From Deltaproteobacteria bacterium (GTDB lineage Bacteria > Myxococcota > JACRCW01), in assembly GCA_016218805.1 (NCBI GenBank), contig JACRCW010000064.1, forward strand, positions 1 to 64,000: a stretch of 64,000 bases of DNA. The letters are read 5' to 3'. Both the position numbers and the translations under genes were made by a program. Position 1 is the stretch's first letter. Each line of letters begins with the position of its first letter. The notes below the pieces were generated by a model. The model was not told the origin of the DNA and did not search any database. It saw nothing but the letters and a program-made list of their open reading frames with translations. This document shows, piece by piece, positions 32,847 through 62,029 of this stretch.

Positions 32847-32881
32847 GAAAGGCTCCGGCGCGGCTCTAGGTGCCGCGCGAT

Positions 32882-40419: not shown

Positions 40420-40549
40420 CACGACCTCCAACCAGGCCGCGGGGGGGGCGCCGCGGGGGCCGCCCCTGTTCCACAAGCCGCGCCCGCCGTCCAGCCCCGG
40501 TTTCCCGCGGACCCCGGGCATGGGATGCTCGCGCCCCGGAGGAACGGAC

Positions 40550-41662: not shown

Positions 41663-41690
41663 GACTGTCTCTTCACGTGGAGGTGTGTCC

Positions 41691-43580: not shown

Positions 43581-44858
43581 TCAGGGCGCAAGTTCCAGCG
43601 CCCTGAACAGCGAGGGTTGCTTGCCCGTGCCCATGCCCGGCGTGAGTTCCAGCCATTGATCGCGCCCGGCGCCGTCGTCGTCGTTCACCATGGCGCAGAA
43701 GCCAAACACCGTCCCGGCGGTAAATGCCGGCTGCCCCAACTCCGCCGCCGTGTAACAGACCTCGTAGTACCAGGTGTTGTCCGCGTTCTGGACGCTGCAC
43801 GTGCCTGACCCGGTGGCGCCCGCCGGCGTCGGCGCCCAGCGGTACGTGCGCAGCTGAGAATCCGGGCTGAGCACGGCGCAACCCAGCTCGCGGTCCTCCG
43901 TGAAGTACGCCGCATCGTCGCCGTCGTGGTCTACGTCAAACGCGAACTGGATGCTGTCCCCCCGCCACAGGTAGGTGCTGTCCGCGGACTCCACGTTGCG
44001 GTGGACGTCGTCCGTCACCATCACCGCCAGGCACAGCGCGTCCGTGTTCCATTGCACCGCCACGTACGCGGACAGGTCCACCACCGGGGGCTGCGGGGCG
44101 CCGGCCACCGCGGGCAACGGGGTCCAGGTGGCGGTGTCCCATTCGGCCAGGGCGCCGTCCGGGACCACCGCCAGCCCGGACGGGGCGACAATCCGGGGCA
44201 GCGCCGACGACGAGCTGGCCGCACCGCTGGATGACGAGGTGCCCGGCGCGGACGCGCCCGACGAGGACATAGGCCCCGACGAGCCGCGGGAATCCGGCGT
44301 GGAGGTTGCCGACGACGAGGACGCGGCAGCACTGGACGAGGAAGGCGGTGGGCGGCTGGTGCCAAATCCCGACGACGACACGGCGGACGAAGCGGCGCCG
44401 CTGGAGGGCGGCGCGAGTGAGGATGGCGCCGCGGAGGAGGAGGAGGAGGAGGAGGAGCGCGAACTGCCCGCGCCCGACGAGGGGATTCCGGCGGAACTGG
44501 CGGCGGAGGACCCCCCGGACGGCGTTGACGACGACGCCCCGCGGGAACTGGAGGGGACACCGCTGGATGCCATGAACGCGCTGGAGGCCGCATTTGACGA
44601 TCCGGCCGAGGCCGATGACGACGACGGAGACGGTGAGGCGCTGGAAGCGGTGCCGCCCGCGCAGTGCCCAGCCACGCAGGGGCCATTGCGACCGCAATCC
44701 AGGTCATCGCGACACGTGCGCCGGCAAATGCGTTCGCGGACGTCACACACATAGCCGCCCGCGCAGTCCGCATCTGCGGCGCAACGGTACCCGGCGGGGG
44801 CGTTGCAACCGAGCGCCACGGCGAGCAGCGCACAGGCGGCGACGGCAGCGGGTTGCAT
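43581..44858 (-). CDS. Lipoprotein with Cys-rich N-terminus, Ser-rich linker and C-terminal CBM9-like domain
   Basis: ALGC lipobox, CxxDxDC motifs, DGALAEW, WNTDALCLAVMVTDD, WRGDSIQFAFD, MVNDDD. Confidence 0.75.
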   Translation of the reverse strand: MQPAAVAACALLAVALGCNAPAGYRCAADADCAGGYVCDVRERICRRTCRDDLDCGRNGPCVAGHCAGGTASSASPSPSSSSASAGSSNAASSAFMASSGVPSSSRGASSSTPSGGSSAASSAGIPSSGAGSSRSSSSSSSSAAPSSLAPPSSGAASSAVSSSGFGTSRPPPSSSSAAASSSSATSTPDSRGSSGPMSSSGASAPGTSSSSGAASSSSALPRIVAPSGLAVVPDGALAEWDTATWTPLPAVAGAPQPPVVDLSAYVAVQWNTDALCLAVMVTDDVHRNVESADSTYLWRGDSIQFAFDVDHDGDDAAYFTEDRELGCAVLSPDSQLRTYRWAPTPAGATGSGTCSVQNADNTWYYEVCYTAAELGQPAFTAGTVFGFCAMVNDDDGAGRDQWLELTPGMGTGKQPSLFRALELAP

Positions 44859-45011
44859 GCGGTTGGGGCGCACGGGGACAGCGGACCACCCTGCGCGCGG
44901 AGCGTCAACCCGTCCCGACGAGCGCTGCCGGGCGCGGCGGATCCAAGTCTGAGCCGGCATCTGTTCCACGAATGCCACGTCCGAACTGCATGCACGCTCT
45001 GCGTGCATGCG

Positions 45012-46238: not shown

Positions 46239-46889
46239 TCAACGCTGCTTCTTCACAATACGCAGATGGGACACCGCCTTGGACGGCGTGAATTCCACGC
46301 ATTCATACAGGTCCTCAACGCCACCCAGACCTTCAAAGATGCGCTCGCCCTGACCCAACAGCAGTGGCACCTGCACCAGGTGCAGCTCATCCACCAGCCC
46401 CGCCTTCATGTACTGGCGCACCGTTCCCGGCCCTCCCGCCAGGCGGACGTCTGCACCCTTGGCAGCCTCCTGGGCGCGCCTCAGTGCGGACTCAATGCCG
46501 TCATTCACAAAGGTGAACGTGGTGCCGCCCTGCATCTCAATGGGGTCCCGCTTCTGGTGGCACAGGACAAAGACAGGGTGGTGATACGGGGGATTGTCTC
46601 CCCACCAGCCCTTCCAGTTGAGGTCCCAGGGCCCGCGGTCCGGGCCAAACATGTGGCGGCCCATGATGGAAGCGCCAATGTTGTCGTCGGAATGGACCAC
46701 AAAGTCGTTGTCGATTCCCTCCGCGCCGTCACCGGGCCGCCCGAACCTGGCGCTGAAGAACCTGGTGGCAAACGCCCAGTCCATGAGCCTGAGTCCGCCC
46801 CTGCCAAACGGCGCATCCAGGGACTGGTTGGGGGCGGCGCTGAAGCCGTCCAGAGACACGGCGAAACTGCGAACCACAAGTCTGCCCAC
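46239..46889 (-). CDS. Dihydrofolate reductase family (RibD C-terminal-like) protein
   Basis: SLDGF, GASIMGRHMF, WWGDNPPYHHPVFVL, LVDELHL...PLLLGQG. GGAGG upstream of GTG 46889. Confidence 0.9.
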   Translation of the reverse strand: MGRLVVRSFAVSLDGFSAAPNQSLDAPFGRGGLRLMDWAFATRFFSARFGRPGDGAEGIDNDFVVHSDDNIGASIMGRHMFGPDRGPWDLNWKGWWGDNPPYHHPVFVLCHQKRDPIEMQGGTTFTFVNDGIESALRRAQEAAKGADVRLAGGPGTVRQYMKAGLVDELHLVQVPLLLGQGERIFEGLGGVEDLYECVEFTPSKAVSHLRIVKKQR

Positions 46890-47106
46890 GGTGCCACCTC
46901 CGACCTGGAAACCATCTCGGCACGGACCGCCCGCGCCTGCCTGCCCGGCCGCCGAAGTCCGGTCGCCGGCTTGTAGTCTTGCGCTGCATACTCTGCGCGA
47001 GATCTGCACCCTGCGCCTCATTCCGCTTGCTTTTGGTTGTGCGGCAAAGCTAACGTCGCGCGAGCAAACAATAGACATCCGCGAAAAAAGGGCGAGGTCC
47101 TCGACC

Positions 47107-50100
47107 ATGCGACGACTCCTTCACCCGGTTTCTCTGATTCCGGTCCTGGCAGCGCTTCAGTTCGCCCCGTTGACGGCCAACGCGGATGCGTGCGCGCCCG
47201 GTCTCGCGGCGTACCCCGAAGGCTGCTGCAACGGGCGGGTGTGGGCCTCGTGCATCACCAACGTCGAGTACGCGCTGGATTGCTCGTCCACGACGGACCC
47301 GAACCAGGGTTGCATCTGGGACACCGGGTTGAGCGCCTACGGGTGCGGCGACACGACGGTGAACCCGTCGGTGGACCCGTCCCTGACGTATGCGCGCGCG
47401 TGCTCGTGCACCATTGATTGCGCGGGCCGCACCTGCGGCAGCGACGGATGTGGTGGGCAGTGCGGCGTGTGCACCGGCAGCAGCTACTGCGACGGTACGC
47501 AATGCGTCTGCTCCCCGGATTGCACCAACCGGTGGTGCGGTGACGACGGGTGCGGCGGTACCTGCGGTGACTGTACCGGGGGCCAGGTCTGCTACGACCC
47601 CGCCATTGGCTGCGAGAACTGCCAGCCCGATTGCACCGGCAAGCAGTGTGGCTCCGACGGTTGCGGCGGACAGTGCGGGCTGGGCTGCGGCGGCGGCATG
47701 GTGTGCAACGCGCAGGGCCAGTGCGACGTGTGCGTGCCGGATTGCGCCGGGAAGATCTGCGGCAGCGACGGGTGCAGCACCATGTGCGGCAACTGCCCGT
47801 CCCAGTACGACACCTGCAGCGCCGACCAGACAACGTGCATTGCATGCGTCCCGGCGTGTTCGGGCAAGCAGTGCGGCGACAACGGCTGCGGCGGCACGTG
47901 CGGGACCTGTGGGTCAACGGAGATCTGCACCGCGGCGCAGCAGTGCGTGGTGTGCACGCCTGATTGCACGGGCAAGCAGTGCGGTGACGACGGGTGTGGC
48001 GGCTCGTGCGGGACCTGCACGTCGGGCACCTGCTCGGTCAGCGGCGTGTGCGATTCCCGCTATTGCCGCGATATCCCCGCGCTGGGCTGCTGTGACGGCA
48101 CCGAGCGCCTGTCCTGCAGCTACCAGTTGATCGACGTGGAGGACTGCGCGGCCACCGGCGGCATGTGCGGACTGAGCGCCAACTCGTTTGGCGTGGCGGG
48201 GTGTTTCTCTGCCGCGGAGGTGACCAGCAGCGCGCCGTGTCCCGCCCCGTGCACTCCCAACTGCACCAACAAGAACTGCGGTGACGATGGGTGCAACAAC
48301 GTCTGCGGGGTGTGCGGCGCCGGTCAGTTGTGCAACGCCGCCCAGCAGTGCGAGGCGTGCGTGCCCGCGTGTTCGGGACGCGTGTGCGGGTATGACTTCT
48401 GCGGTGGCTCCTGCGGCACGTGCACGGGCGCAGGCGAGGTGTGCACCCCGGATGGCCAGTGCGTGGTGGAGGAGCGGACCTGCGCCAACGTGCCGGTGGG
48501 CGGCTGTTGCGAGGGCGGCATCTACAAGCAGTGCGACGACGGCCCGATGGCCCAGCTGCGCTGCTCGGACTTCGGCGACGTGTGCGGCAGCAATTGGTTC
48601 GGCGGCTTTGCGGGGTGCTGGCCGCAGTCACAATACGAAGGCCCCAAGCCGTGCGCCTGCATTCCCAAGTGCACCGGCAAGGAGTGCGGACCCGACGGGT
48701 GCGGCGGCGTGTGCGGCACCTGCCACGCCGGCCAGGACTGCGATGAGAACGCGCAGTGCGTCTACCCTGCGTGTCCCGATCTCCCGGATGAGCGCTGCTG
48801 CACCGGCGAGGTGCTCTCCGGCTGCAGCCAGCGCGGTGCGCTGCCCGTCGACTGCAAGTCGCGCAACCAGTACTGCGGCTGGGATTCGGACCAGGGCGTC
48901 TACGGCTGCGTGGACTCCCCCAACCTCACCGACCCGGCCGGCGCGCTGCGGAATTGCCCCGGCGCCCCCACGTGCACCCCGAGTTGCACCGGCCGCACCT
49001 GCGGCAGCGACGGATGCGGCGGAAGCTGTGGAACGTGCCCCACCGACCGGACCTGCGATTTCACCACCGGCACGTGCGTGGGCGAAACCATGTGTTCGTC
49101 ACTGCCGCCGGGCGGCTGCTGCTACGTCAACACGGAGTACTACAACATCGTCCAGCACCTCTCCTGCTCGTCGACGGACGACTACCCCTCGCGGCAGCAC
49201 TGCGGCCTGATGCCCAACCCCAGCGGGTGGGGCTCGGTCCAGGGCATGTGCGGCTGGGCTGATGGCCGCGTGGCCTGCGTGCCCAAGACCAGCACCGCCC
49301 AGCCGCCGTCCGGCACCAACATCTACTGCCCCACGGGCACCTGCATCCCCAAGTGCGACGGCACCGACCAATGCGGTGCCGACGGCTGCGGGGGGGTGTG
49401 TGGCATCTGCCCCGCCACACACAGCTGCGTGGCCGCTGCGGACGGGACGGGCGGCCATTGCGTCGCACCGTGTTCGCCTTCATGCGCGGGACGCACATGC
49501 GGCTCTGACGGCTGCGGGGGCAGCTGCGGTGACTGCAACTACAACGAGGAGTGCAAGGAGCTTGAACTCGGCAAGAGCGCGTGCGTCTTTGTCAACCGCT
49601 GCAACGGCCTGCCTGACGAGGGCTGCTGTGACGGGCGGGACCGGGTCAGACGTTGCCACAACGGCTACCCGGTGAGTGAGGAGTGCGGCTCCCTGGTGTC
49701 ATGCGGTTGGTACGAAGGCGGCGGGAGCTACGTGTGCGGGCGCACCAACGGCGCGGCCGACCCGAGCGGAGTCCATCCCAAGACGTGCCCGGGTGGCAGT
49801 TCGGCGTGCGTGCCTCGCTGCGGGGGCAAGGAGTGTGGTGTTGACGGGTGCGGCGGCTCGTGCGGCACGTGCACGGGAGGCATGGAGTGTGACCGCGCGG
49901 GGAAGTGCCGCACACCCACGTTCACGGGCGGCAAATACGACCAGTACACTTACACGTTTTCTCCCTCGGCAGGCTGTTGTTACGACGACGGAACAATGCA
50001 GTACGAACGCTACAACGCGGATGTCTACCTGGGGAAACAGCGCGTAGGGCAATTGCCCTGTTATTACGGCTGCGGGTTCAACGAGCAGTACCAGATGTAC

Positions 50101-53100
50101 ATGTGCAACGAATACGGGAGGCCCGCGCTCCCGTCGGTGGACCCCGCCGGCAACTACCCGCGCGTGTGCCAGGCCCCAACGTGCACGCCCTCCTGCGCTG
50201 GCAAGCAGTGTGGTGACGACGGGTGCGGCGGCAGCTGCGGAAGCTGCGCCGACGGGTCACGCTGCTACGAGAACCAGTGTTACAACCTCTGCACCGAGCC
50301 CGACCCGCGCAGTCACGAGTATTACACGGAAGAGGGGCGCTGCAGTTACGCCACGCTGTACTTCTGCGACAACGGGTTGCCGGCGGAGCTGAACTGCAAC
50401 CAGGTGGGCAGCCTGTGCGGATGGAACGAGTTGCTGGGCGCTTACTCGTGCGGCACCAGCGGTGAGGCGGGACCCGCCGGTACCGAGCCGATCCAGAACC
50501 CCGACTGCGCGTTCGCGTCCGGCACCTGCGGCTTCAAGCGCGGGTGCGGCATCAACGACGGCGCCTGCCCGTCGGGGCAGAGCTGCTCGGTCCAGGGTTA
50601 CGTGGAGGACTACGGGCTCGGGCATTGCGTGAACAACTCGGAGACCCAGTACACAAGCTGCAAGGCCCGTTGCTTCGGCACCCGCGTCATTGAACGTTTC
50701 AATTACCAGTGCTCCTGCAATGAGGGCTGCGAGGTCCTCGGCGACCCTGCCTTCTCGGTCAACAACGCGGTTGAGCACGGCATCTGCTGCACGGACTACG
50801 CCTACGAATGCCAGGGTGCGCCATCCGTTCCCGCGTGCGGGGACGGGTTCTGTTTCCGCGACGCGGGCGAGTCCTGCGCCAGCTGCCCCGGCGACTGCGG
50901 CGCATGTCCCGCCGGGTCCGACACGCCGCCGTGGAACGCTCCCTACGACCGCGCCCCCCGTGCGGCGGCCGGTGGCGGCGTCAACGACCTCGCCCTGAGC
51001 CCGCTGGATGACGTGCTCCCGGTGAGCCCGCCGGTCCCCACCGACGCGCTCATGATGTACGTGCCCGCCCCCGGCATTGACCTTGGACCGCCGGGCTCCC
51101 GTACCAACTTCCAGCCCGGCACCGACGTCATTGCCTCCACCACGGGCCGGCTGGGCCAGGCCCTGCGCTTCTTCACCCAGACGGGCCAGACCGTCACGCA
51201 CGCCGGTGACCTCACCTGGCTGCCTGACGGAGCGCTCCCCCGCGTGGTCAACACGAAGACCCGCGAGAACGGCGGCATGTCCGTGGCCATGTGGATCAAC
51301 GTCCCCGACGACATCGATCCTGCCGCGCTCAACCCGTTGTGGACCGGCCTCCCCGCACCGGATGCCGCCGACAACACCGAGCGGCTGTGCCTGTGGCCCC
51401 GCAAGTACAGCAGCCCCCGCCTCAAGGTGGCCTGTCCCAGGATCAATGGGCAAGAATCCAAGATCACTGACATCCGCATGTACGCCGGCGGCATCGTCGG
51501 CCTGCCCGCAGCCCCCGACGGGAACTGCCTGCGGATGAGCGACTACAAGCAGGACGCCACCTGCCAATGGAGTGGCGCGGAGGACTACGCACGAACCACC
51601 TGCCTCGGCCAGGGGAGCTGCACGCTGAAGTTCCCGGACAACGTCCCGGGCTGCGTCGCCGACTCGCCGTCGACGACCATGTACGTGGAGGCCGTCTGCA
51701 GCGCCAATCCCACGCCGCCCGAGCTGGGCGTGTCCATGCTCATCACGCCGTCGAGCATGGGTCACCAGCTCGCGCTCTCCGCGCCTGGCGCCAGCTTCGC
51801 GTCCACCAAGGAAGTCACCACGGGCGAGTGGCACCACGTGGGCTTCACGTTTCAGCCGTTTGCATCCGAGAAGAAGCGCGCCGGCGGCATTGCCACGCTC
51901 TACCTTGACGGTGAAGCGGTCGCCTCCAACGCATCGGTCCGCTTCCCGCGCCTCCGGTCGTCCACCACCAGCGGCGTCACCACCACAGCGCTGAACCTCT
52001 TCCCGCTCGGGATGAACCCATCCCGCACGGCCACCTCGTCGCTCATTGCGGACGTGGATGAGCTGTTTGTGTACGGACGCGCCATCACCGACGGCGAGAT
52101 GTCCAGCCTGGCGCGCAAGGGCACCCGCGGCCTGCGCATGGTGTGGCCTGAGAATGGTTCTGCGCACCGTTTCCGGAATGACGCCACCAGCCTCTCCCTG
52201 GTCACTGTCGACGCGCCGCACCTGCTGGACGTGGGCGCGCCGGGTGGCTCCCGGACGGTGCGGCGCGAGCAACCCGCCCTCCACGTCGGAAACGACCGTT
52301 CCCTTGAGTTTGGCAAGTCGGGCACGCATGACCTTGCGGGTCTGTCCTCCTACACGTTGATGGCGTGGGTACGGCAACCCGCCTCCGGGACCCTCCGCAC
52401 GCTCATGTCCGCTGGCGAGGCCGGTACCGACGAGCGTCTGAAATTGGAGCGGGTGGATTCCACCGGCGCCTGCGGAGGGCGCGCGCTCGTTGCCACGTTC
52501 AGCGATGGCACCGTCACGCAGACCGACTGTTCCTACGGCTTTGATCCGGACCGCTGGGTCATGCTCGCCGTCACCCAGGGAGGCGGAAAGCGGAGCATCT
52601 ACGTGGACGCGGTGCTGGTTGCCGAGAGCAGCGTGTCCAATCCGGCGGCGCTGTTCGTGGGCACTGGCGGATCGCCCCGGGTGGCGTTCCGCGACGTGGA
52701 CGTCTTCTGGGCGGGGCTGTTCCAGCGGGCGCTCAGCCAGCCGGACCTGGCCATCTGGCGCGGCCAGGGTCCCCTCATGTGGACGGACGGCGCGAAGTAC
52801 ACCGCCGGCGGCGCCGGCAAGGTGCGTGACTACGCGCTCTACCAGGAGCGGGGCGTCACCACCCAGCGACCGACGCTGTGGCAGGGGAACACGCCGCTGG
52901 CGTCCGCCAGTGGCGCCGGCCCGCTCGCGCTCGACCGCGCGACGACGCAGGAACTGACCATTCCGGCGAGCGTACACTTTGCCCGGCCCGAGGGCAGCAC
53001 CACCGACGACGCCCCGCGCATCTTCTCCTACGCCGCGCGCGTGGTGATGAACGGCGACGGCACCTACCCACTGGTTGACCGCCAGGTGGCATCCGGGGGG

Positions 53101-55974
53101 CAGCACGTCACGCTGTTCCGCGCCGACCTCGAGTGCAGCACCGGCAAGTGCCAGGTCACCGGCAAGGCGCGGGTGGCCGGCCCGGGCGTGACGTCGTCCA
53201 AGGACGAAAGCAGGTTCTCGAGCGAGTTCTTCACGTTGGGCGCCGCCACCGAAGCCGACGTCGCGCTCTCGTTCGACGGCCGCAACGTGCTCGTCGCGAT
53301 GGGCGTGCTTGGCGCCTCAGGCGGGGCAAGCCTGGAGTCCGCACACGCCCTCGCGGTGGACGAGGTGCTCCAGGCGCGCAGCCTGCCCAGCACCACCGCC
53401 GCGCCCACGGCGCTGACGGGCTCCTTCTTCCGCATCAGCGCTGCGCGCGCCACGGCCACCACGCTGTCCTTCAAGGAACTCCGCTTCTACCCGCGCGCCA
53501 TCTCTCCGGTGGAGCTTGCGGGTCTGGCGCGCCGCGACTGCAACAACGCCGGGTGTTCCGCGCGCGGGATGACCTGCCATGCGGGCAGCGGGATGGCCTT
53601 GCCGTCGTGCTCGGGCTGCGAAGCGGGTGCAATCCCGGCTTCTGACGGAGCCGGGTCGTCGTGCATTTCGCGGACGCCGTTCATGGCCGCGTGCACGTCA
53701 GACGAACAGTGTCAGACCGGGCTGTGCGTGGGGCGCCGCTGCGTGGAAGGCAGCAGGACTGAGTTCTGCACGAGCGCCTGCGCCGCGCTTGGCCGCAACT
53801 GCGAAGAGAAGAGCCACAACGCCTACGGGTGCAGCGACGACTGCAAGGAGTTCTACCGCCAGGACTTTGCCACGCCGCCCAACGAGGCGTGCTTCTGGTC
53901 GCCGGAGACCGAGAACCACGCGCTGTGCGAGACCAGCGACCAGTGCCTCTCCGGCGCGTGCATCACCGCCAGGGAGAAGACCTACTCCGTGGTGGAGACC
54001 ACCACCTGCCCGGTCCAACAGAGTGGCACCAGGGACTTCTACTGCCGCAAACCCGACGACAACTTTGACCGCTGGAAGGTGTGGGCCAGCATCAACGGCG
54101 GTGCGTTCCAGGATTGGCCGGCGTTCTGCCTGAACCTCAACAACACCAGCGACGACTTTGTGGTGCGCAACGTCTATGCGGGCCGCGAATGCCCGCCGGT
54201 CTTCACCTCCGTGAGCGGCGGTGCCAACGACGTCAAGCGCTGCGCGGAGCAGGAGGACCTCGGTTGTACGGCGCGGAACCGCAAGTCGACCGCATCCCGC
54301 ATCACGCGCCCGGGAGAGCCGGAGGAGCGGACCGTCTACACGTGCAGCGGGTGCCTCGACACCACGTTCAACGGCGTGCCGCTCTATGTGGAAGGCTTCA
54401 AGATGATGAAGCCGGAGCTGTGCAAGACGGTGCGCGAGAAGATCGTCGACAGCTGGATTGACTACCGCGGCGGAAACAAGCGTTCCTACAGCTACCCGTC
54501 AGGCGTGGGCGCGGACGTGCTCAAGCAGCTGTTGTTGACGGGCACCGGATCGCTGACACCGGCGGAGTATTCGCAGCTGGAAAAGATGGGGTTTGGCCCC
54601 ACGGTGCTCAACTTTGACGTCTGGCCCGCGCATGACCAGTTGGACTGGTACTGGAAGTGGGGCGGCTTCCTTGACTTTGAGGAGTGCGGCGTGGAGTTGC
54701 CGCCGGCGAACCTGTCGTCCGCGGCGCGGCTCGAGAGGTTCAAGCAGAGCAAGGCGGCCTCCCCGTTCCACGACCTCGACGACAACGCGGCCATCTGCAG
54801 GCCCAACAAGTTCCCCAACGGCACGCCGTGTCCACCGCCTGGCGCCAACCTCACCAGCGGTGATTCGCCGCATTCTTTCTGTGACAGCGGCTTCTGCGCG
54901 CGTGACACCGGCGTGTGTGAGGAGGGCTACGGCCGGGTGGAGGACACCAACGGCGAGAGCCGCGCTGATGACAAGAAGGACGACGACAGCGAGTTCCCGG
55001 TCAGCTTCTCCCAGACCAACCGCACCAGCATGGAGGTGCGCACCGTGGGGACGCTGGCCAACGGGCAGACCAAGAAGCGCGAGTACACGCTGCAATCCGT
55101 CAACGACAACACGCTCACGTTCTTCGGCTCCAGCCGGTCCATCATGCGCATTGAGGAAACCGCGGTCACCGACCCCGACGACGAAGCCAGCGAATTCGAA
55201 GGCAGAACCTTCTTCCTTGGCCTGCAGGTTCCTTCTGACGATCCCGCCGTTGCCTGTGAGGGCGCCAGCTGGAACAACGGCGAGTACCAGCCGCCGCCGC
55301 CGGGCTCTCCCCGCTGCGCACCGGCGGAGGACGGCATCACGCCCGCCATCCCCGTCGTGAAGTTGTGCCTCCCGTCGCCCGCCGGTTGCGAAGACGTGGA
55401 CCCGTTCACTGACTTCGCTTCGAACACCACCGGCAAGGGGCCCATGTGCGTGAAGAAGACGTTCCTGGCCGGCCCCGTCCCCATCACGATGCAGGCGGAA
55501 GTGACCCTGGACGCGTGCATCGGCGTGGGCTTCCACATTGACGACCAGACCCAGGAGCCCGCGTTCCGCGTGGTTCCGGAACTGGGCGTCGGCGTCGACC
55601 TGCGCGGCGGCGTGGGTGGCAGCATTGGGCCGGTGGAGGTGTTTGCCGGCGCGCGCGCGGTCATCACCATCCTGGGTCTCGAGTTCCCCATCGCCTGGGG
55701 CCTGGTGATCGAGAAGAAGGACAAGGACCCGCAGCAGGAGCAGATCGAGAACCTCTACGTCGTGAAGTTCCAGAGGACCATCGGCCTGGACATCACCGTC
55801 CTGAAGCTGGCCTTGTCGCTCTTTGCCGAGGTGGGCGTCGGAATCTTCATGATCGAGTGGGACCAGATCATCTTTGAGTTCGGTGGCCTGCAATTCCACT
55901 TCGATCTCGCGTCGACCGACATCCAGAGCAAGAAGGTCGACTTCGAACATCCAACCGCCGCGTACGGCAACTGA
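47107..55974 (+). CDS. Giant (~2955 aa) secreted Cys-rich protein with somatomedin B-like, LamG-like and SUEL-lectin-like domains and a beta-rich C-terminus
   Basis: Signal peptide from ATG 47107; 14 CxxxxCGxDGCGGxCGxC-type repeats; 8 GCC...CGW..YxC-type modules; GEWHHVGFTF/LYLDG/DELFVYGRA LamG motifs; amphipathic beta-strand tail. Confidence 0.85.
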   Translation: MRRLLHPVSLIPVLAALQFAPLTANADACAPGLAAYPEGCCNGRVWASCITNVEYALDCSSTTDPNQGCIWDTGLSAYGCGDTTVNPSVDPSLTYARACSCTIDCAGRTCGSDGCGGQCGVCTGSSYCDGTQCVCSPDCTNRWCGDDGCGGTCGDCTGGQVCYDPAIGCENCQPDCTGKQCGSDGCGGQCGLGCGGGMVCNAQGQCDVCVPDCAGKICGSDGCSTMCGNCPSQYDTCSADQTTCIACVPACSGKQCGDNGCGGTCGTCGSTEICTAAQQCVVCTPDCTGKQCGDDGCGGSCGTCTSGTCSVSGVCDSRYCRDIPALGCCDGTERLSCSYQLIDVEDCAATGGMCGLSANSFGVAGCFSAAEVTSSAPCPAPCTPNCTNKNCGDDGCNNVCGVCGAGQLCNAAQQCEACVPACSGRVCGYDFCGGSCGTCTGAGEVCTPDGQCVVEERTCANVPVGGCCEGGIYKQCDDGPMAQLRCSDFGDVCGSNWFGGFAGCWPQSQYEGPKPCACIPKCTGKECGPDGCGGVCGTCHAGQDCDENAQCVYPACPDLPDERCCTGEVLSGCSQRGALPVDCKSRNQYCGWDSDQGVYGCVDSPNLTDPAGALRNCPGAPTCTPSCTGRTCGSDGCGGSCGTCPTDRTCDFTTGTCVGETMCSSLPPGGCCYVNTEYYNIVQHLSCSSTDDYPSRQHCGLMPNPSGWGSVQGMCGWADGRVACVPKTSTAQPPSGTNIYCPTGTCIPKCDGTDQCGADGCGGVCGICPATHSCVAAADGTGGHCVAPCSPSCAGRTCGSDGCGGSCGDCNYNEECKELELGKSACVFVNRCNGLPDEGCCDGRDRVRRCHNGYPVSEECGSLVSCGWYEGGGSYVCGRTNGAADPSGVHPKTCPGGSSACVPRCGGKECGVDGCGGSCGTCTGGMECDRAGKCRTPTFTGGKYDQYTYTFSPSAGCCYDDGTMQYERYNADVYLGKQRVGQLPCYYGCGFNEQYQMYMCNEYGRPALPSVDPAGNYPRVCQAPTCTPSCAGKQCGDDGCGGSCGSCADGSRCYENQCYNLCTEPDPRSHEYYTEEGRCSYATLYFCDNGLPAELNCNQVGSLCGWNELLGAYSCGTSGEAGPAGTEPIQNPDCAFASGTCGFKRGCGINDGACPSGQSCSVQGYVEDYGLGHCVNNSETQYTSCKARCFGTRVIERFNYQCSCNEGCEVLGDPAFSVNNAVEHGICCTDYAYECQGAPSVPACGDGFCFRDAGESCASCPGDCGACPAGSDTPPWNAPYDRAPRAAAGGGVNDLALSPLDDVLPVSPPVPTDALMMYVPAPGIDLGPPGSRTNFQPGTDVIASTTGRLGQALRFFTQTGQTVTHAGDLTWLPDGALPRVVNTKTRENGGMSVAMWINVPDDIDPAALNPLWTGLPAPDAADNTERLCLWPRKYSSPRLKVACPRINGQESKITDIRMYAGGIVGLPAAPDGNCLRMSDYKQDATCQWSGAEDYARTTCLGQGSCTLKFPDNVPGCVADSPSTTMYVEAVCSANPTPPELGVSMLITPSSMGHQLALSAPGASFASTKEVTTGEWHHVGFTFQPFASEKKRAGGIATLYLDGEAVASNASVRFPRLRSSTTSGVTTTALNLFPLGMNPSRTATSSLIADVDELFVYGRAITDGEMSSLARKGTRGLRMVWPENGSAHRFRNDATSLSLVTVDAPHLLDVGAPGGSRTVRREQPALHVGNDRSLEFGKSGTHDLAGLSSYTLMAWVRQPASGTLRTLMSAGEAGTDERLKLERVDSTGACGGRALVATFSDGTVTQTDCSYGFDPDRWVMLAVTQGGGKRSIYVDAVLVAESSVSNPAALFVGTGGSPRVAFRDVDVFWAGLFQRALSQPDLAIWRGQGPLMWTDGAKYTAGGAGKVRDYALYQERGVTTQRPTLWQGNTPLASASGAGPLALDRATTQELTIPASVHFARPEGSTTDDAPRIFSYAARVVMNGDGTYPLVDRQVASGGQHVTLFRADLECSTGKCQVTGKARVAGPGVTSSKDESRFSSEFFTLGAATEADVALSFDGRNVLVAMGVLGASGGASLESAHALAVDEVLQARSLPSTTAAPTALTGSFFRISAARATATTLSFKELRFYPRAISPVELAGLARRDCNNAGCSARGMTCHAGSGMALPSCSGCEAGAIPASDGAGSSCISRTPFMAACTSDEQCQTGLCVGRRCVEGSRTEFCTSACAALGRNCEEKSHNAYGCSDDCKEFYRQDFATPPNEACFWSPETENHALCETSDQCLSGACITAREKTYSVVETTTCPVQQSGTRDFYCRKPDDNFDRWKVWASINGGAFQDWPAFCLNLNNTSDDFVVRNVYAGRECPPVFTSVSGGANDVKRCAEQEDLGCTARNRKSTASRITRPGEPEERTVYTCSGCLDTTFNGVPLYVEGFKMMKPELCKTVREKIVDSWIDYRGGNKRSYSYPSGVGADVLKQLLLTGTGSLTPAEYSQLEKMGFGPTVLNFDVWPAHDQLDWYWKWGGFLDFEECGVELPPANLSSAARLERFKQSKAASPFHDLDDNAAICRPNKFPNGTPCPPPGANLTSGDSPHSFCDSGFCARDTGVCEEGYGRVEDTNGESRADDKKDDDSEFPVSFSQTNRTSMEVRTVGTLANGQTKKREYTLQSVNDNTLTFFGSSRSIMRIEETAVTDPDDEASEFEGRTFFLGLQVPSDDPAVACEGASWNNGEYQPPPPGSPRCAPAEDGITPAIPVVKLCLPSPAGCEDVDPFTDFASNTTGKGPMCVKKTFLAGPVPITMQAEVTLDACIGVGFHIDDQTQEPAFRVVPELGVGVDLRGGVGGSIGPVEVFAGARAVITILGLEFPIAWGLVIEKKDKDPQQEQIENLYVVKFQRTIGLDITVLKLALSLFAEVGVGIFMIEWDQIIFEFGGLQFHFDLASTDIQSKKVDFEHPTAAYGN

Positions 55975-55983
55975 CGCAGGAGC

Positions 55984-57966
55984 ATGACCATGCGATCCCG
56001 TTCGATCCTGACGTTGTTCGCCGCCGTTGCCGCCGTGGGCGGGCTGCTGTGGTGGACTTCCCGCACCGAGCCGGCCCCGTCCACCCGCGTTGATGCCGCG
56101 CCGCCACGTGCCGCCGCACCGGTGGATGTTGCGCTGCACGCGCCGCCCGCCGACGTGCTGCAACCCGCGGAACCCTCCAAGCCCGTGGAGCCTCCCCCCA
56201 CGCTCGATGGTCGTTACGCGCTCCGCTACGCGATGACCATGTCGGGCGCCGACGCCGTGGGGAACGTGCCGCAGGCGCTCATGGTGCTCACCGGCACGCT
56301 CGTCGTCGAGCCGGCGCAGGAGGGGGAGCGGCGGTGGCTGAAAGCGTCGCTTGAGGGCGCGTCGCTGCAGCTTGATGAGGCGCTCAGGAAGGTCACCGAT
56401 TTCCCAGCCGCGCCCGACGGGGAATTCAAGCAGCCCTTTGCGGTCCCGCTTGAGCGCGACGGCCGTGTCGTCGACATCCGCTTTGCACGGGACCTGAGTC
56501 TGGCCACCCGCGGCACGCTGGCGGCGGTGATGCAGGCGGCGCAGTTCGTCCGCGTGGACCCCGCCGCCGCGGAGTACGACCTGCCGGAATGGTCGGTGAA
56601 TGGCACGCTGTCTTCCCACTGGCTGCGCAAGAGCGCCTCCGAGTACGTGCGCGCCTGGCGCGGCGCCGAATACGTCGACACGGCGGGGGGCCTGGACCCG
56701 GCGCCCGCGCAGTCATCGTTCGGTGAAGGGACGATCACGCTCGCCAACGGGCGCATTGAGAAGGTGGAGGCCAACGAGCGCGGGACTGCGCGCACCGGCG
56801 CCCAGGTGCAGCGACGTCCGTCCTACACAACGAGCGTTGAGCTCACGCGCATGGAGGGCAAGGCGTCGGTGGCTGCAGCGCGTCCGGACGCGCTCACGCC
56901 GCTTGTCACCAGCCAGCTCCACATCCCGCTCCCCAGGGAGCCCGCCGTTCCGTTTGAGGAGGCAATGGCCCAGGTGGAAGCGGCGGGCGACAAGCGCGCG
57001 GAACGCGCAGTGGCCCGCAAGACCCTCATGTACACGCTCATGGCGTCACCCGCCTCCGCAACGCAGGCCGAAGCGGTGTTCCGCCGGCCGGGCACTCCCG
57101 ACGCGGTCAAGCGCACCACCGTTGAGGCGCTGGCGGGCGCCGCCACGCCGGAAGCGCAGAGCGTGCTCGCGTCGGTGATGCTGGATGACAAGGTGCTCGT
57201 CACCGACCGCCTGTTCGTTGTCCAGGCCACCGTGGGCGTGAAGAAACCCCGCGAGCAGCTCCTGGACGACATGGCGCGCCTTGCCTACGAGCACCCCGAC
57301 AAGATCTACGCAAGCCAGGTGGCCATGGCGCTGGGCGCGGAGATCGCCTGGGCCGCCGAGCACAACGTGAAGACGGCCACCGGGTACCTGGCGGGCTACC
57401 TGCAGCACGCGGCCGCGGTGTTGCAGCCGCCGAATGCGGGAGAACCCAAGCGCCTCCGTGAGCGGTCCAACTGGCTCGGCGGGCTGGGCAACCTCGCCTC
57501 GCCCAACGCGCTCCCGTTCATTGAGGCGGCGCTGTCCGACCCGGAGCAGGGCATTCGCGCGAGCGCCGCGCACGCACTGCGGTTCCAGGACCCGCGGCCG
57601 GTCCGCGAGCGCATGCAGCAGATCATGCACCAGGACCAGTCGATGACGGTGCGCCTCGGCATCCTGCATGCCGCGCGTTATATGGGCCCCGAGTCGCAGA
57701 AGACGCTGGTGGAGCGCGCGCTCACCTACGATCCCAGCGAGAACGTCCGCACCGAAGCCGCCTACGTCATCTCGGCGTGGCTGCCGCAGGCGCCGGGACT
57801 CCGCCAGGTTCTCGCGCAAGCCCTGGAGCAGGAACGGTCGGAAAAGGTCCGCCATGTGCTGCGCAACTTCCTGGAGCCCGGCCGCATTGCGCCGCCGGGG
57901 CAGCTCATTCCAACGGTGAACGAGCTCATCCCGCCCGAATACCGCTCGACGACGGAGAACCCGTGA
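55984..57966 (+). CDS. Membrane-anchored HEAT-repeat protein with vitellogenin/MTP N-terminal-like domain
   Basis: N-terminal TM, beta-rich domain with KQPFAVPLERDGRVVDIRF and YDLPEWSVNG, helical repeats LGGLGNLASPNALPFI and IRASAAHALR. Confidence 0.7.
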   Translation: MTMRSRSILTLFAAVAAVGGLLWWTSRTEPAPSTRVDAAPPRAAAPVDVALHAPPADVLQPAEPSKPVEPPPTLDGRYALRYAMTMSGADAVGNVPQALMVLTGTLVVEPAQEGERRWLKASLEGASLQLDEALRKVTDFPAAPDGEFKQPFAVPLERDGRVVDIRFARDLSLATRGTLAAVMQAAQFVRVDPAAAEYDLPEWSVNGTLSSHWLRKSASEYVRAWRGAEYVDTAGGLDPAPAQSSFGEGTITLANGRIEKVEANERGTARTGAQVQRRPSYTTSVELTRMEGKASVAAARPDALTPLVTSQLHIPLPREPAVPFEEAMAQVEAAGDKRAERAVARKTLMYTLMASPASATQAEAVFRRPGTPDAVKRTTVEALAGAATPEAQSVLASVMLDDKVLVTDRLFVVQATVGVKKPREQLLDDMARLAYEHPDKIYASQVAMALGAEIAWAAEHNVKTATGYLAGYLQHAAAVLQPPNAGEPKRLRERSNWLGGLGNLASPNALPFIEAALSDPEQGIRASAAHALRFQDPRPVRERMQQIMHQDQSMTVRLGILHAARYMGPESQKTLVERALTYDPSENVRTEAAYVISAWLPQAPGLRQVLAQALEQERSEKVRHVLRNFLEPGRIAPPGQLIPTVNELIPPEYRSTTENP

Positions 57967-60206
57967 TGCGGCACCTGGTTCTTTGCGTTGCCGTTGGCGC
58001 GCTCTCCCTGGCCGGCTGCCAGAAGAACGGTTCCTGCGGTGAGGGCACGGTGGAGAAGGATGGGGCGTGCGTGCCCGTGGAGGCCGCGGGAATGACCTGC
58101 GGCGCGGGCACGGCGCTGTCCGACGGTGGCTGTGTGCGCACGGGGCCGGTGACACCGTCACTGACCTGTGGCGCGGGAACCACGCTGGTCAATGGGCAGT
58201 GCGTGGCGCTTGACGCGGGCGGTTCAAGCGGACCGGCGTGCGGGCCGGGGACCGTGCTTGTTGGGACCACGTGCGTGCTCAGCGACGGCGGGAGCACCGA
58301 CGCCGCCGTCTGCGTGCCCCAATGCCTGGGCCGGGAGTGCGGTGACAACGGCTGCGGCGGCACGTGCGGTTCATGCACGGATTCGGCGAAGCCGAGCTGT
58401 GACCAGCAGACCGGCCGGTGCGGCGCCGTGTGCGTGCCGCAGTGCGCCGGTCGCAGCTGCGGTGACAACGGGTGCGGCGGAACCTGCGGCACCTGTGGTT
58501 CGGAGACGACCTGCTCGGCCACGCTTGCGCGCTGCATCCCTGACGCCTGGACGTGCAGCCCCAGCTACTTCGGCGGTGGCGACGTCTGCGATTGCGATTG
58601 CGGGGCCCGCGACACCGATTGCGACCTGGGCCGGCCGCTCGCGGGGTGCGAAGAGGGAGAAATCTGCAACAGCCTGGGCGCCTGCGTGCCGGCCGCGCCG
58701 TCGTCGTGGACGTGCTCCACGCTGGCGTACAACGCCCATGACGCGTGCGACTGCGGATGCGGCGCGTATGACCCGGACTGCGACTTCATCAGCGTCTTTG
58801 GCATCAACGGCTGCGGTGAGGGCGTGACCACGTGCAACAGTGATGGGACCTGCGGGACCTGCACGCCGGACTGCGCGAACAAGGTATGCGGCAACAACGG
58901 GTGCGGCGGGTCGTGCGGCCAGTGTGACGTCGGGAACGACCAGGTCTGCCACGCGGGAGCCTGCGTGGGACGGTGCACGCCCACGCCCGCGGCATGCCTG
59001 GATGCCGCGTGCGGTGACGACGGTTGCGGTGGCGTGTGCGGCACCTGCTCAACCGGCACCAGCTGCAACGCCGGCGCGTGCCGGACCGATCCCGTGGCGC
59101 AGACGCCGTTCTCATGCGCGGGACGCTGCGGGAGCCAGGCGCCATCCGGCTGTTACTGCGACGCCACCTGCGCGGCGCACAACAACTGCTGCGCCGACTA
59201 CGCCACGACGTGCCAGTGCACGCCGGACTGCACAGGCAAGACGTGCGGCAGCGACGGATGCGGCGGCGACTGCGGGACGTGCACGGGGACCACGCCCTAT
59301 TGCACCGACGCCGGCCAGTGCACGAGCCAATGCACCCGGAGATGCGACGGCCGCCAGTGCGGCAGCGACGGATGCGGGGGAACGTGCGGCACCTGCGCGA
59401 CGGATGAGAGCTGCTACTGGACCTACCAGTGCGTTCCGTCCAACTGGACGTGCGACGGCGTGCTGTTCGGCGACCAGCAGGGGTGTGACTGCGGCTGCGG
59501 CGCCATCGACCCTGACTGCTCGGTGTCAGACGCGTACGTGTACGGCTGTCCCCTGGAGCACCGCGTCTGCGGCGGCGCCGGGATGTGCAGCATCTCCTTC
59601 TGCCACCGCAACGGCGAGTGCGGTTCGCAGTGGTGCACCGGCGCCTACGCGGAGGGGAACCAGCGCTTTGGCGGCTACTGCGCAGATCCCATCATCACGG
59701 GACATCCACCCGGAACCGCGTGCACGCTGGACGAGCAATGCGCGTCCCTGTTGTGCGCGGGTGGCCAGTGCCGCACGCACTGCCAGGCCGATTCGGACTG
59801 CGACGGTGCAACCCGGTGCGTGGCGCTGCCGGTGCGCGACGTCGGAACGCGGCTCATCCAGGGCTACGTGGGCGCGTGCGACCTCGTCGCCGGGTCCGGG
59901 GCGGCCTGCACCAGCCAGGCGGCGTGCGGCAGCATCGAGCGGTGCATCGTCGTGATGGACCCATCGACCACGCAGCCGCGGTATCTGTGCGCATCGCTGT
60001 TGGAACTGGACGCCGTGGGCCGCGCCTGCGACCTGGACGCATGTCCGGCGGGGTATCGCTGCGAGGACGGCGGCGCCGGTCGCATCTGCACGCGGCCGTG
60101 CCCCGCCGGAGTGGGCGATTGTCCGTCGGGCTACCAGTGCGTTGACCGTCCGCTCGCTCCCCTCCTTCCAACCAGCGCCATGGTGCCGCTGTGCCTGCCG
60201 GGGTGA
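57966..60206 (+). CDS. Cys-rich lipoprotein (CGxGT, CGDxGCGG, WTC..CDCxCG..DPDC and somatomedin B-like repeats)
   Basis: LAGC lipobox; TGATG overlap with the upstream gene; repeats read directly from the translation. Confidence 0.85.
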   Translation: MRHLVLCVAVGALSLAGCQKNGSCGEGTVEKDGACVPVEAAGMTCGAGTALSDGGCVRTGPVTPSLTCGAGTTLVNGQCVALDAGGSSGPACGPGTVLVGTTCVLSDGGSTDAAVCVPQCLGRECGDNGCGGTCGSCTDSAKPSCDQQTGRCGAVCVPQCAGRSCGDNGCGGTCGTCGSETTCSATLARCIPDAWTCSPSYFGGGDVCDCDCGARDTDCDLGRPLAGCEEGEICNSLGACVPAAPSSWTCSTLAYNAHDACDCGCGAYDPDCDFISVFGINGCGEGVTTCNSDGTCGTCTPDCANKVCGNNGCGGSCGQCDVGNDQVCHAGACVGRCTPTPAACLDAACGDDGCGGVCGTCSTGTSCNAGACRTDPVAQTPFSCAGRCGSQAPSGCYCDATCAAHNNCCADYATTCQCTPDCTGKTCGSDGCGGDCGTCTGTTPYCTDAGQCTSQCTRRCDGRQCGSDGCGGTCGTCATDESCYWTYQCVPSNWTCDGVLFGDQQGCDCGCGAIDPDCSVSDAYVYGCPLEHRVCGGAGMCSISFCHRNGECGSQWCTGAYAEGNQRFGGYCADPIITGHPPGTACTLDEQCASLLCAGGQCRTHCQADSDCDGATRCVALPVRDVGTRLIQGYVGACDLVAGSGAACTSQAACGSIERCIVVMDPSTTQPRYLCASLLELDAVGRACDLDACPAGYRCEDGGAGRICTRPCPAGVGDCPSGYQCVDRPLAPLLPTSAMVPLCLPG

Positions 60207-60211
60207 CCACC

Positions 60212-61564
60212 ATGACCAAGATGCAAAGCCGAGGTGTCCGCGCTGGTTTCATCGTCGCCATGTTGGTGGCGGCGGGCTGCCCCAGGAAGGGACCCACCTG
60301 CGGCGCCGGCACCACTGCCAACGACGAGGGTGTGTGCACCGCTCCGGCTCCCGCAGCCGGCCCGGTGTGCGGACAAGGCACCGTGGAATTCAGCGGGACA
60401 TGTGTTCCCGTGGACGCGGGCCCCCCGACGACGTGCGGGACCGGGACCCACGAATCCGACGGTGGCTGCGTTCCCGACGACGGCGGCGCCACGCGGACGT
60501 GCGGGACCGGCACCCTGGAGGTGAACGGCGCGTGCGTTCCCGCGTCCGTAGACGGAGGACCGCGGCCCGATGGCGGCGGCGACGCGGGTGCCAGCGCGGA
60601 TGCGGGCGTCCCGGTGTGCACGCCGGCGTGCGGGCCGGGGTTCTACTGCAGCGCGGACCAGGCGTGCCTCCCGACGCCAAGGCCCGCGTCGTGGTCGTGC
60701 TTCTTCGAACAGTATCGCGATGGCGATTCGTGCGACTGCAACTGCGGCGCGTTTGACCCCGACTGCGCCAACACGCTGCTCCCCGTCCACGGCTGCGCGT
60801 CCGGTCAGTGCCAGGGCGACGGGACCTGCGTGGCGTGCGCGCGCCAGTGCACCAACCGGCAGTGTGGCGACGACGGCTGCGGCGGTTCATGCGGGATCTG
60901 CAGCGCGCCGGGCCTCAACCGCTGCGCCAACGGCCTGTGCGTGGCATGCGTGGCCGATTGCGCGAACAAGCAATGCGGCGACGACGGGTGCGGCGGCACG
61001 TGCGGCGAATGCGCGCAGGGCCTGATGTGCAACGCCGGGCTGTGCGAGCCGCCTTCACCGGGCTCGTCGTGCCTGTTCGCCTGCGGTGGGCTCGCGCCCG
61101 ACGGGTGCTCGTGCAAGGGGGGCTGCCAGGAGACGGGCACCTGTTGCGTTGACGTGAACGTCTGTGGGTGCCTCCCCGCGTGCGAGGACAAGCGGTGCGG
61201 TGCGGACGGTTGCGGCGGTACCTGCGGCAGCTGCCTGGACGAGGAGGTCTGCACGGTGGAGCAGCTGTGCGTCGACAACCCGTGCGAACCCAATCCCTGC
61301 ACCGCCTACGGGGCGTGCAACGTCGTCGACGGCACCTGTACCTGCGGCACCGCCTACAAGGGGGCGACGTGCGATGCCTGCGCCGACGGCTACACGGGCT
61401 ATCCGAATTGCGTGGAGGACCTCTGCGCGGCGACGTCGCAGACCTGCTTTGGCCACGGGACGTGCGTGCCCTCCACGGGCTTGTGCGCCTGCGACACGGG
61501 CTTCACCGGTTCGCAATGCACGGAGTGCACCGCCGACGGCGGCGTGTACCCGAGCTGTCCGTAG
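60212..61564 (+). CDS. Cys-rich lipoprotein, paralog of the upstream gene, with EGF-like C-terminus
   Basis: AAGC lipobox, same repeat vocabulary, CFGHGTC...CACDTGFTGSQC EGF-like motif. Confidence 0.85.
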   Translation: MTKMQSRGVRAGFIVAMLVAAGCPRKGPTCGAGTTANDEGVCTAPAPAAGPVCGQGTVEFSGTCVPVDAGPPTTCGTGTHESDGGCVPDDGGATRTCGTGTLEVNGACVPASVDGGPRPDGGGDAGASADAGVPVCTPACGPGFYCSADQACLPTPRPASWSCFFEQYRDGDSCDCNCGAFDPDCANTLLPVHGCASGQCQGDGTCVACARQCTNRQCGDDGCGGSCGICSAPGLNRCANGLCVACVADCANKQCGDDGCGGTCGECAQGLMCNAGLCEPPSPGSSCLFACGGLAPDGCSCKGGCQETGTCCVDVNVCGCLPACEDKRCGADGCGGTCGSCLDEEVCTVEQLCVDNPCEPNPCTAYGACNVVDGTCTCGTAYKGATCDACADGYTGYPNCVEDLCAATSQTCFGHGTCVPSTGLCACDTGFTGSQCTECTADGGVYPSCP

Positions 61565-61606: not shown

Positions 61607-62029
61607 TCACGGAGCCGACGTGATGGTCAGTGACCACGCCCCTGCGGCAGAGTCGTATCTCTGGAAGGTGCACCGTTCTGCTCCTTCGCAGCGGGTGACC
61701 TGCAGGGGCTGCGTGGGGATGTGGATGTGGAGCGTGCCGGTCCCCGGCGGCATGCCCTCCGCCAGGCGGATTGTGACCCTGTTCCCTTCAATGGACACAC
61801 GGCTCACCCAACAGCCGAGAAGAAGACCGACCTCGCCCGCGTCGGCAGACGGGACGTCCGCATCGCGGGGGCAATCCTGGAACACGGGGTATTCGAACCA
61901 CACCCGGCCACTTTGCAGCAGCACGTCCGTCGGCGGCTCGCGTGCAAACACCGGCTGCGCGCCGGACGCCACCACCGGCGGGAAGTCCGACGGCACGACC
62001 TCCGGATCCACCATGTTCCACTGCCGCAC
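61607..62029 (-). CDS. Hypothetical protein, possibly a 5'-truncated remnant
   Basis: Protein-like composition and fills the gap between neighbours, but has no convincing start or RBS. Confidence 0.35.
   Translation of the reverse strand: MRQWNMVDPEVVPSDFPPVVASGAQPVFAREPPTDVLLQSGRVWFEYPVFQDCPRDADVPSADAGEVGLLLGCWVSRVSIEGNRVTIRLAEGMPPGTGTLHIHIPTQPLQVTRCEGAERCTFQRYDSAAGAWSLTITSAP

Follow-up and report, generated by a model that had tools for sequence, protein, structure and literature searches.

Can a bacterium carry the architecture of a large lipid transfer protein (LLTP) divided between two genes? The question is raised by a stretch of 64,000 nucleotides from a Deltaproteobacteria bacterium of the Myxococcota (contig JACRCW010000064.1, assembly GCA_016218805.1, positions 1 to 64,000, forward strand; hereafter the window), in which four open reading frames (ORFs), A to D, follow one another on the same strand. 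PMC12214520 presents LLTPs as lipid carriers of the animal circulation and ties their emergence to multicellularity. We infer that the operon encodes a split, membrane-tethered bacterial LLTP-like module with variable cargo, its lipid binding, location, and target being putative. On balance, it seems likely that A and B, as separate exported chains, together make up a single MTP-like large-lipid-transfer module, one half each. The genes, with product lengths in amino acids (aa), are as follows.

47107..55974, plus strand: ORF A, 2955 aa; exported giant with a probable signal peptide, Cys-rich stalk, LamG/SUEL lectin-like region, Cys knots, and C-terminal two-sheet domain
55984..57966, plus strand: ORF B, 660 aa; LLTP N-terminal module with a probable membrane signal-anchor and a Pro-rich linker
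57966..60206, plus strand: ORF C, 746 aa; Cys-rich lipoprotein with 6 shared repeats and a somatomedin-B domain
60212..61564, plus strand: ORF D, 450 aa; Cys-rich lipoprotein with 3 shared repeats and C-terminal EGF-like domains

The junctions are a 9-bp gap (A/B), a 1-bp overlap (B/C, in TGATG), and a 5-bp gap (C/D), in agreement with the coordinates and shared orientation given by a first-pass annotation, which had read the operon as a possible split LLTP system. Its account of the products also holds. The giant Cys-rich/LamG protein with a beta-rich end is A, which has 244 Cys in total, two LamG stretches, and an all-beta last ~324 aa; the membrane-anchored beta-domain and HEAT protein is B, with one N-terminal hydrophobic segment, a beta domain, and 18 helices; and the two Cys-rich lipoproteins, C and D, have lipoboxes and share with A a repeat of the CGx[DN]GCGGxCGxC type (11 copies in A, 6 in C, and 3 in D). 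The A/B split is no assembly error, as contigs from three runs of one groundwater study cross from the A stop into the B start with zero differences or indels; the window itself may derive from one of these runs. A scan of positions 46800-47150 for promoters and terminators returned 0 sites, and the sequencing runs listed as holding the sequence included no RNA run. The source genome (6.4 Mb, 92% complete) belongs to a class of which four genomes were examined, and its phylum takes in the family whose proteins carry the source labels Corallococcus and Archangium.

The features of B, and the domain of A with which it would pair, are these.

56002..56058, plus strand: N-terminal hydrophobic helix of B (aa ~7-25), its one hydrophobic segment; a putative uncleaved signal-anchor
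56197..56937, plus strand: large lipid transfer (LLT) beta-barrel (N-sheet) with central helix, aa 72-318 of B, from the AlphaFold2 (AF2) model and profiles
56953..57885, plus strand: helical domain of B, 18 helices, aa 324-630, from the AF2 model
57487-57492, plus strand: G502-N503 motif of B, the lowest-error predicted contact to the A sheet domain
55000..55971, plus strand: sheet domain of A, aa 2632-2955; AF2 predicted local distance difference test score (pLDDT) 75 and predicted template modeling score (pTM) 0.57, in a model of aa 2609-2955

B is derived from LLTPs over the barrel and helices. Against PDB sequences, the B profile matches lipovitellin (E 1.8e-17), MTP (E 4e-14, as a single continuous match to residues 33-550), and apoB (E 3.6e-7). 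A profile of barrel plus helices matches lipovitellin residues 1-505 at E 5.2e-21, and the barrel by itself finds lipovitellin as its sole match among 177,635 PDB sequences (E 1.7e-8). PF01347 (Vitellogenin_N) scores 27.8 bits on aa 337-553 against a cutoff of 24. The AF2 model (pLDDT 88; beta domain spanning aa 76-290) retrieves LLTPs in the first 11 rows of a Foldseek search, with MTP at the top (E 2.3e-15). The first-pass annotation had allowed that B might match only generic HEAT repeats and lack an LLT barrel; by profile and Foldseek, the barrel is there. Since automatic PF01347 labels on bacterial proteins are already in databases, B alone is not unseen: it falls in ESM Atlas clusters of Myxococcota and Pseudomonadota labelled "HEAT repeat / Vitellogenin_N" (feature score 0.97), with PF01347 on 39-80% of members in the top three clusters. 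NCBIfam returned nothing but weak HEAT-type matches, and a B homologue found no match in the plasmid collection searched. Public collections start B at residue 3 (658 aa; window 55984-55992), and either ATG is possible. A low-depth contig in one of the groundwater runs, aligned to window 56370-56637, represents a close relative of B, about 90% alike.

The proposed partner of this module is the C-terminal sheet domain of A. Its model consists of a short first sheet, a Cys-containing insert, a meander of six mostly long strands, and a terminal helix; a GPVP hairpin (aa 2789-2792) sits between strands 1 and 2 of the long sheet. Throughout the family the strands are amphipathic, hydrophobic residues taking turns with polar ones, and a large free hydrophobic face is kept across 58 diverse sheet domains. 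MTP occupies ranks 1-2 of a Foldseek search (E 1.8e-3; template modeling score 0.17), and the ranges from VIA-align land on MTP 624-882 and 722-868. Descent from the C- and A-sheets of LLTPs is weakly supported. The first-pass annotation had put barrel and solenoid in B and the LLTP sheet at the end of A; the former placement stands on profiles and Foldseek, and of the latter the predicted amphipathic two-sheet fold stands. A profile of the last 345 aa of A homologues gave weak matches to ~400-aa secreted proteins that adjoin B homologues in Myxococcaceae, and nothing else significant among the 34,077 ORFs of its own genome. The domain matched no family in Pfam, NCBIfam, or ESM Atlas (best Atlas score, 0.82), and whole ORF A and a single fusion protein gave nothing significant against PDB sequences.

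The two halves also occur in nature as one chain. An 829-aa protein (locus L119:5870-8470, minus strand; contig C162 of genome G211; P0183) runs from a start that by eye resembles a signal peptide through the barrel, HEAT-like helices, and a sheet domain, and carries no cargo. PF01347 scores 80.4 bits on it, barrel included. Its aa 566-825 match positions 6-278 of 292 in a sheet profile built free of fusions, at 50.4 bits (E 1e-14); the reversed sequence scores 3.1 bits and the maximum in 1000 block shuffles is 11.0. For the same domain, hhalign gives a probability of 86.9. A second fusion (L131:1249-4071, plus strand; contig C86 of genome G354) is 79% identical to the first, and the 90% cluster of the fusion numbers five proteins, of which two carry the source name Archangium sp. 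(e.g., WP_309896271.1). Both fusions are the only full-length ones found with the fusion as query among 151 genomes of that family. A search with the sheet profile for longer fused forms returned 7 proteins, none with a B domain, which is weak evidence; the fusion came from genome loci. The fusion has the domain order of MTP and nearly its size (829 versus 894 aa), keeps residues equivalent to G502 and N503, and is the best candidate for biochemistry.

Separate genes for the two halves are linked across the phylum. In 301 sampled genomes (E<=1e-35; the counts are a floor, from a stricter first look), the sheet profile matches 95 and the B profile 90; both halves occur in about 30%, often in several copies. 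At least 113 of the 150 listed B matches, in 68 genomes, have one of the 150 listed sheet matches no more than 2 kb away, with a further 21 and 16 matches beyond those two sets; the sheet gene comes first in 85 of the 113, B in 20, and 8 pairs are divergent. When 25 of 37 apparently lone sheet genes were refetched, 21 proved to have a B neighbor, 2 were at contig ends, and 2 (both in genome G179) had no B within ~6 kb; 15 further lone B loci comprised 9 paired, 1 fused, and 5 behind dnaA. The first-pass annotation had asked whether the pair is conserved elsewhere, and it is: the fetched loci of the phylum gave 124 distinct B sequences, of which 96 have a paired sheet gene, 2 are fused to a sheet, 23 come directly after dnaA, and 3 lie where a contig or locus ends. 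These figures describe conservation and carry no statistical test, the loci being an author's selection and not a random one, in which kin are not independent. The search for related loci from a 10-sequence B alignment reaches close relatives only. A correlation between B and sheet distances (r 0.87 over 47 pairs; best of 1000 permutations, 0.21) was dropped as evidence of binding because neighboring genes are co-inherited.

The copies behind dnaA form one clade, which may have a different partner. In family f11 (L071-L075, L077-L087, L111, and L121-L124) B paralogues lie on the same strand directly downstream of dnaA with no sheet gene, and in L064, L083, L086, and L087 a complete pair occupies the opposite side of dnaA. 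The two lone sheet genes of G179 (L096:5556-7178, a 541-aa open frame, and L104:5625-7079, 485 aa) share their genome with other complete pairs and may use B in trans.

A predicted complex shows how the halves could fit. B (aa 66-640) with A (aa 2609-2955) scores 0.82 (runs 0.83, 0.81, and 0.82) against 0.00 for the best control, above a mark that was reached by 116 of the 157 solved complexes and by 2 of the 215 mismatched pairs; a confident predicted interface with the last ~350 aa of A is what the first-pass annotation had proposed as a check. The runs agree in at least 72% of contacts, with a partner pLDDT of at least 51. In the model, the B helices meet the short sheet at alternate residues, and barrel helix 174-181 holds the GPVP hairpin. 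Averaged over the family, hydropathy is -1.3 at strand positions in contact with B (24 columns) and +1.7 at the others (23 columns), so B would cover polar faces and leave hydrophobic ones exposed, which is the situation in an LLTP cavity and not that of a chaperone. The G502 and N503 residues are kept in 56/62 and 60/62 paired sequences versus 0/12 and 5/12 of the partnerless dnaA-linked copies; as the latter are one clade, this motif loss counts as one event. A and B very probably form a heterodimer with LLTP architecture, and the predicted docking of A into B is backed by gene linkage, the natural fusion, and the loss of the motif in partnerless copies. The cavity of the heterodimer probably binds lipid. 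An earlier idea, that the hydrophobic hairpin tips (FFG, FLG, and AGPVP) insert into a membrane, was dropped, the model having placed these tips on B.

We envisage B as held in the membrane by its N-terminal helix, a putative anchor, and presenting the LLT barrel and 18-helix clamp. The C-terminal domain of A would dock into it in the manner of the MTP C- and A-sheets, with the helices covering the short sheet on its polar side and the GPVP hairpin plugged into the barrel. The hydrophobic faces of the two sheets would then oppose each other and could hold a small amount of lipid, as in MTP, which the module might acquire or pass on at the cell envelope. Upstream of the sheet, the ~2,600 residues of A may act as an exchangeable arm placing the module on a glycan-bearing surface, and C and D, with the same repeats, may be accessory envelope subunits of the giant subtype to which the window belongs. 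That the arm of A targets foreign cells is doubtful. The structural core of the interpretation in the first-pass annotation is thus supported, and its "cell-surface" location and prey targeting are speculation.

MTP-alpha (PDB 6I7S and 8EOJ) is the closest known counterpart, and the top Foldseek match for both chains. It shares the barrel, a clamp of ~17-18 helices, a short sheet, and a six-stranded long sheet. According to PMC6717300, MTP's C-terminal domain comprises a short C-sheet, an A-sheet of six strands and twice that length, and a terminal helix; Gly746 forms a tight turn contacting the barrel, and Asn479 is among the conserved residues that contact the C-sheet at its tip. The predicted docking of A and B is alike, with the first hairpin of the long sheet in the barrel (GPVP at the site of the Gly746 turn) and helices on the short sheet, and, judged by the end-points of the match, N503 of B would correspond to Asn479 if the last 15 match columns are ungapped. 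Both systems presumably work in an oxidizing exported compartment. The bacterial form differs in having two genes, usually with the sheet gene first and, in the window, with the intervening stop confirmed; in the membrane anchor of B; in the 2,600-aa N-terminal arm and the Cys insert between the sheets of A; and in the absence of Cys from B (0 residues), hence of the barrel disulfide common to MTP (Cys174-Cys194), lipovitellin, and apoB according to the same text. Identity in structure alignments is 8-14%. MTP proper is an obligate heterodimer with PDI; a Pfam scan of the four ORFs, the only part of the genome searched for one, found no thioredoxin-fold (PDI-like) gene.

Lipovitellin and vitellogenin (PDB 1LSH, 9ENR, and 9ENS; PMC12214520) give the best LLTP sequence match for B, and weak PF09172 matches at the start of the long sheet are a further likeness, but the bacterial sheet domain, at ~260-320 aa, is MTP sized and too small for their large funnel, and the bacterial form is split and anchored. 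Vitellogenin proper has a C-terminal vWD domain; none was detected in A-D by Pfam scan (E<=1), and the sheet ends A after ~324 aa. There is no long amphipathic beta-belt like that of the apoB-100 beta-alpha1 region (PDB 9BD1 and 9BD8), so a large lipoprotein particle is unsupported. LLTPs are single polypeptides, as are the fusions in L119 and L131; A and B of the window are not. The operon is therefore partly of the LLTP superfamily and is neither MTP nor vitellogenin proper.

Several results weigh against an LLTP-like module. The homology of the A sheet to LLTP lipid-binding sheets rests mainly on architecture and the fusion, none of its sequence or fold scores being significant. Porins outscore MTP for the A sheet in VIA-align, and sheet-domain profiles of 46 and 58 sequences gave 0 matches to PDB sequences at E<=10. 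PF19444 was found in 0 of 5 genomes, and PF09172 is sub-threshold in 3 of 58 sheet domains; in those 5 genomes no PF09172 match exceeded the cutoff, the best (in G011, E 0.31) being a sheet gene beside B. The pass of the modeled complex may arise from likeness to solved LLTPs, as it can for halves of a split gene. Finally, B looks, from its sequence, like an inner-membrane signal-anchor protein, with a hydrophobic N-terminus in 102 of 109 family members, and the module would therefore sit in the periplasm unless exported further. If the anchor stays uncleaved, the likely site is the inner membrane on its periplasmic side. No external target is obvious there for a lectin arm of 2,600 aa, and so either the complex moves further out or the arm works within the envelope.

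The same heterodimer could instead serve display. B would then be a membrane-anchored socket for any sheet-ended protein, holding variable cargo, with its pocket occupied by a fixed structural lipid or by acyl chains that partner lipoproteins, such as C and D, supply. This would account for the sizes: what precedes the sheet ranges from ~130 aa to >3,500 aa, with domains as varied as LamG, RCC1, Dicty_CTDC, C-type lectin, DUF11/SBBP, and lactonase/Ig, and B stays at ~600-700 aa. It also accords with the neighbors, among which no lipid-pathway gene recurs in the fetched loci. Yet the fusions carry no cargo and short partners (~384 aa) would have little or nothing to display, the large hydrophobic face conserved in 58 diverse sheet domains is left free, and C and D are confined to the giant subtype. 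We consider this explanation, the main rival, unlikely.

Much less probable still is that the sheet domain inserts into a membrane, as an autotransporter-like translocator or a pore-forming half-barrel, to export or anchor the giant passenger, with B as its periplasmic chaperone. Type V autotransporters do resemble A in their signal peptide, variable passenger, C-terminal amphipathic beta domain, and middling fold scores. Their beta domains form a closed 12-stranded transmembrane barrel and end in a C-terminal aromatic beta-signal, but the last residue is F or W in only 3 of 86 complete sheet proteins and Asn in A; the fold here appears to be two open sheets, with a near-obligate LLT partner, and in the model B binds the polar face. 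It is least credible, to the point of being highly improbable, that B is a stand-alone HEAT/LLT-like protein linked to its neighbor by shared regulation alone, with no assembly. Such a protein would fit the 23 dnaA-linked copies without an adjacent partner and the two G179 sheet genes without B within ~6 kb, as well as the finding that the best-scoring PDB matches of the whole-B profile are artificial HEAT proteins. It would not fit the natural fusion in MTP order, linkage in three gene orders, the predicted complex, or the loss of the contact motif in the partnerless clade.

That a bacterial family has this barrel and helical clamp, a dedicated sheet partner, and a natural one-chain form places the architecture outside animals as well. 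It opens the origin of MTP, apoB, and vitellogenin to tests on small proteins suited to bacterial expression (the 829-aa fusion, or a pair of ~384 and ~660 aa from cultured genera), and the module may represent a way, so far undescribed, in which myxobacteria handle lipid or display cargo in their envelope. Of its forms, the one in the window is the most elaborate: four genes in a conserved operon, with a lectin-armed chain of 2,955 aa. A bolder proposal is that Myxococcota carry a complete modular LLTP system of split pairs, MTP-like fusions, and lectin-armed giants, that the sheet chain is swapped onto arms that pull lipid from prey or substrate, and that animal MTP, vitellogenin, and apoB descend from the bacterial family or are its sister group; we regard this as rather unlikely, and if true it would mean that LLTPs predate animal multicellularity. 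The string "bacteri" does not occur in PMC6717300, and a search of titles and abstract openings, which did not cover subscription papers or supplements, found no publication on a bacterial LLTP or an A/B pair.

The remaining features of A and C lie in the putative arm and the lipoproteins.

47107..47184, plus strand: probable cleavable Sec signal peptide of A, with an A-N-A site at aa 24-26 (by eye and hydropathy peak)
47191..50916, plus strand: disulfide-rich stalk of A, ~20-30 Cys per 150 aa across aa 1-1050, with the 11 shared-repeat copies
50659-50811, plus strand: somatomedin-B-like module in the A stalk (PF01033, E 0.0094, below cutoff)
51433..51699, plus strand: SUEL (galactose/rhamnose) lectin-like insert in the first LamG region of A (PF02140, E 0.13, for the truncated window stretch)
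51772..52668, plus strand: two LamG/ConA-like stretches of A, aa ~1556-1612 and 1741-1854 (PF13385, 65.4 bits)
54805..54921, plus strand: small conserved Cys knot directly before the sheet domain in the giant subtype (invariant alignment columns)
59112-59216, plus strand: somatomedin-B domain of C (PF01033, 34.3 bits, above cutoff)

Full-length homologues of the C-terminal 426 aa of A number 18; they show 34-60% identity, measure 1677-3846 aa, and without exception contain PF13385, some also having RCC1 or Dicty_CTDC repeats. The SUEL motif is present in 7 of 12 giant ORFs tested, and the 7 homologue stretches picked by motif all match PF02140 (E 6e-6 to 0.022), each under the curated cutoff. 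Genome-wide, the shared Cys repeat occurs in only four six-frame ORFs of at least 100 aa: A, C, D, and one other. The lipobox cysteines are Cys18 in C and Cys23 in D; both proteins are 15% Cys, and D has an EGF-like match to PF07974.

In the B tree, the B proteins with giant partners form one clade. A repeat-bearing Cys-rich ORF like C directly follows B in 13 of 13 giant-subtype loci and a D-like gene is present in 9, the other 4 loci ending within or just after C; neither gene was found outside this subtype in the fetched loci. Giant-subtype operons in L033 and L038, titled "uncultured Enterobacteriaceae bacterium," group with Myxococcota and probably come from a mislabelled bin. Just past ORF D, at window 61608-61651, the contigs of the three groundwater runs differ from the window at several clustered positions, through strain variation or a difference in assembly.

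Elsewhere, L099, L100, L108, L112, L113, L120, and L061 have the sheet on DUF11/DUF7948/SBBP (2337 aa), on a lactonase propeller with Ig (2200 aa), on a C-type lectin, or on CARDB-like sequence, the pattern of a polymorphic cargo. Recurring neighbors outside the giant subtype are kinases, PAS-type sensors, and a HINT-like gene; the last (L058:10964-12049, with relatives in L054, L056, L060, and L066) accompanies short Myxococcaceae pairs and has a weak PT-HINT match (E 2e-4, below cutoff). Upstream of the operon, on the minus strand, the window also encodes an amidohydrolase to which a lamin-tail domain is joined (28914-32885), an exported protein, rich in Ser, that has a CBM9-like domain (43581-45008), and, at 37453-41676, a subtilase (PF00082) whose true start lies well inside the listed ORF. 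The subtilase has a Cys-rich C-terminal region and ends in a hydrophobic helix followed by arginines, which we take to resemble a myxobacterial sorting signal.

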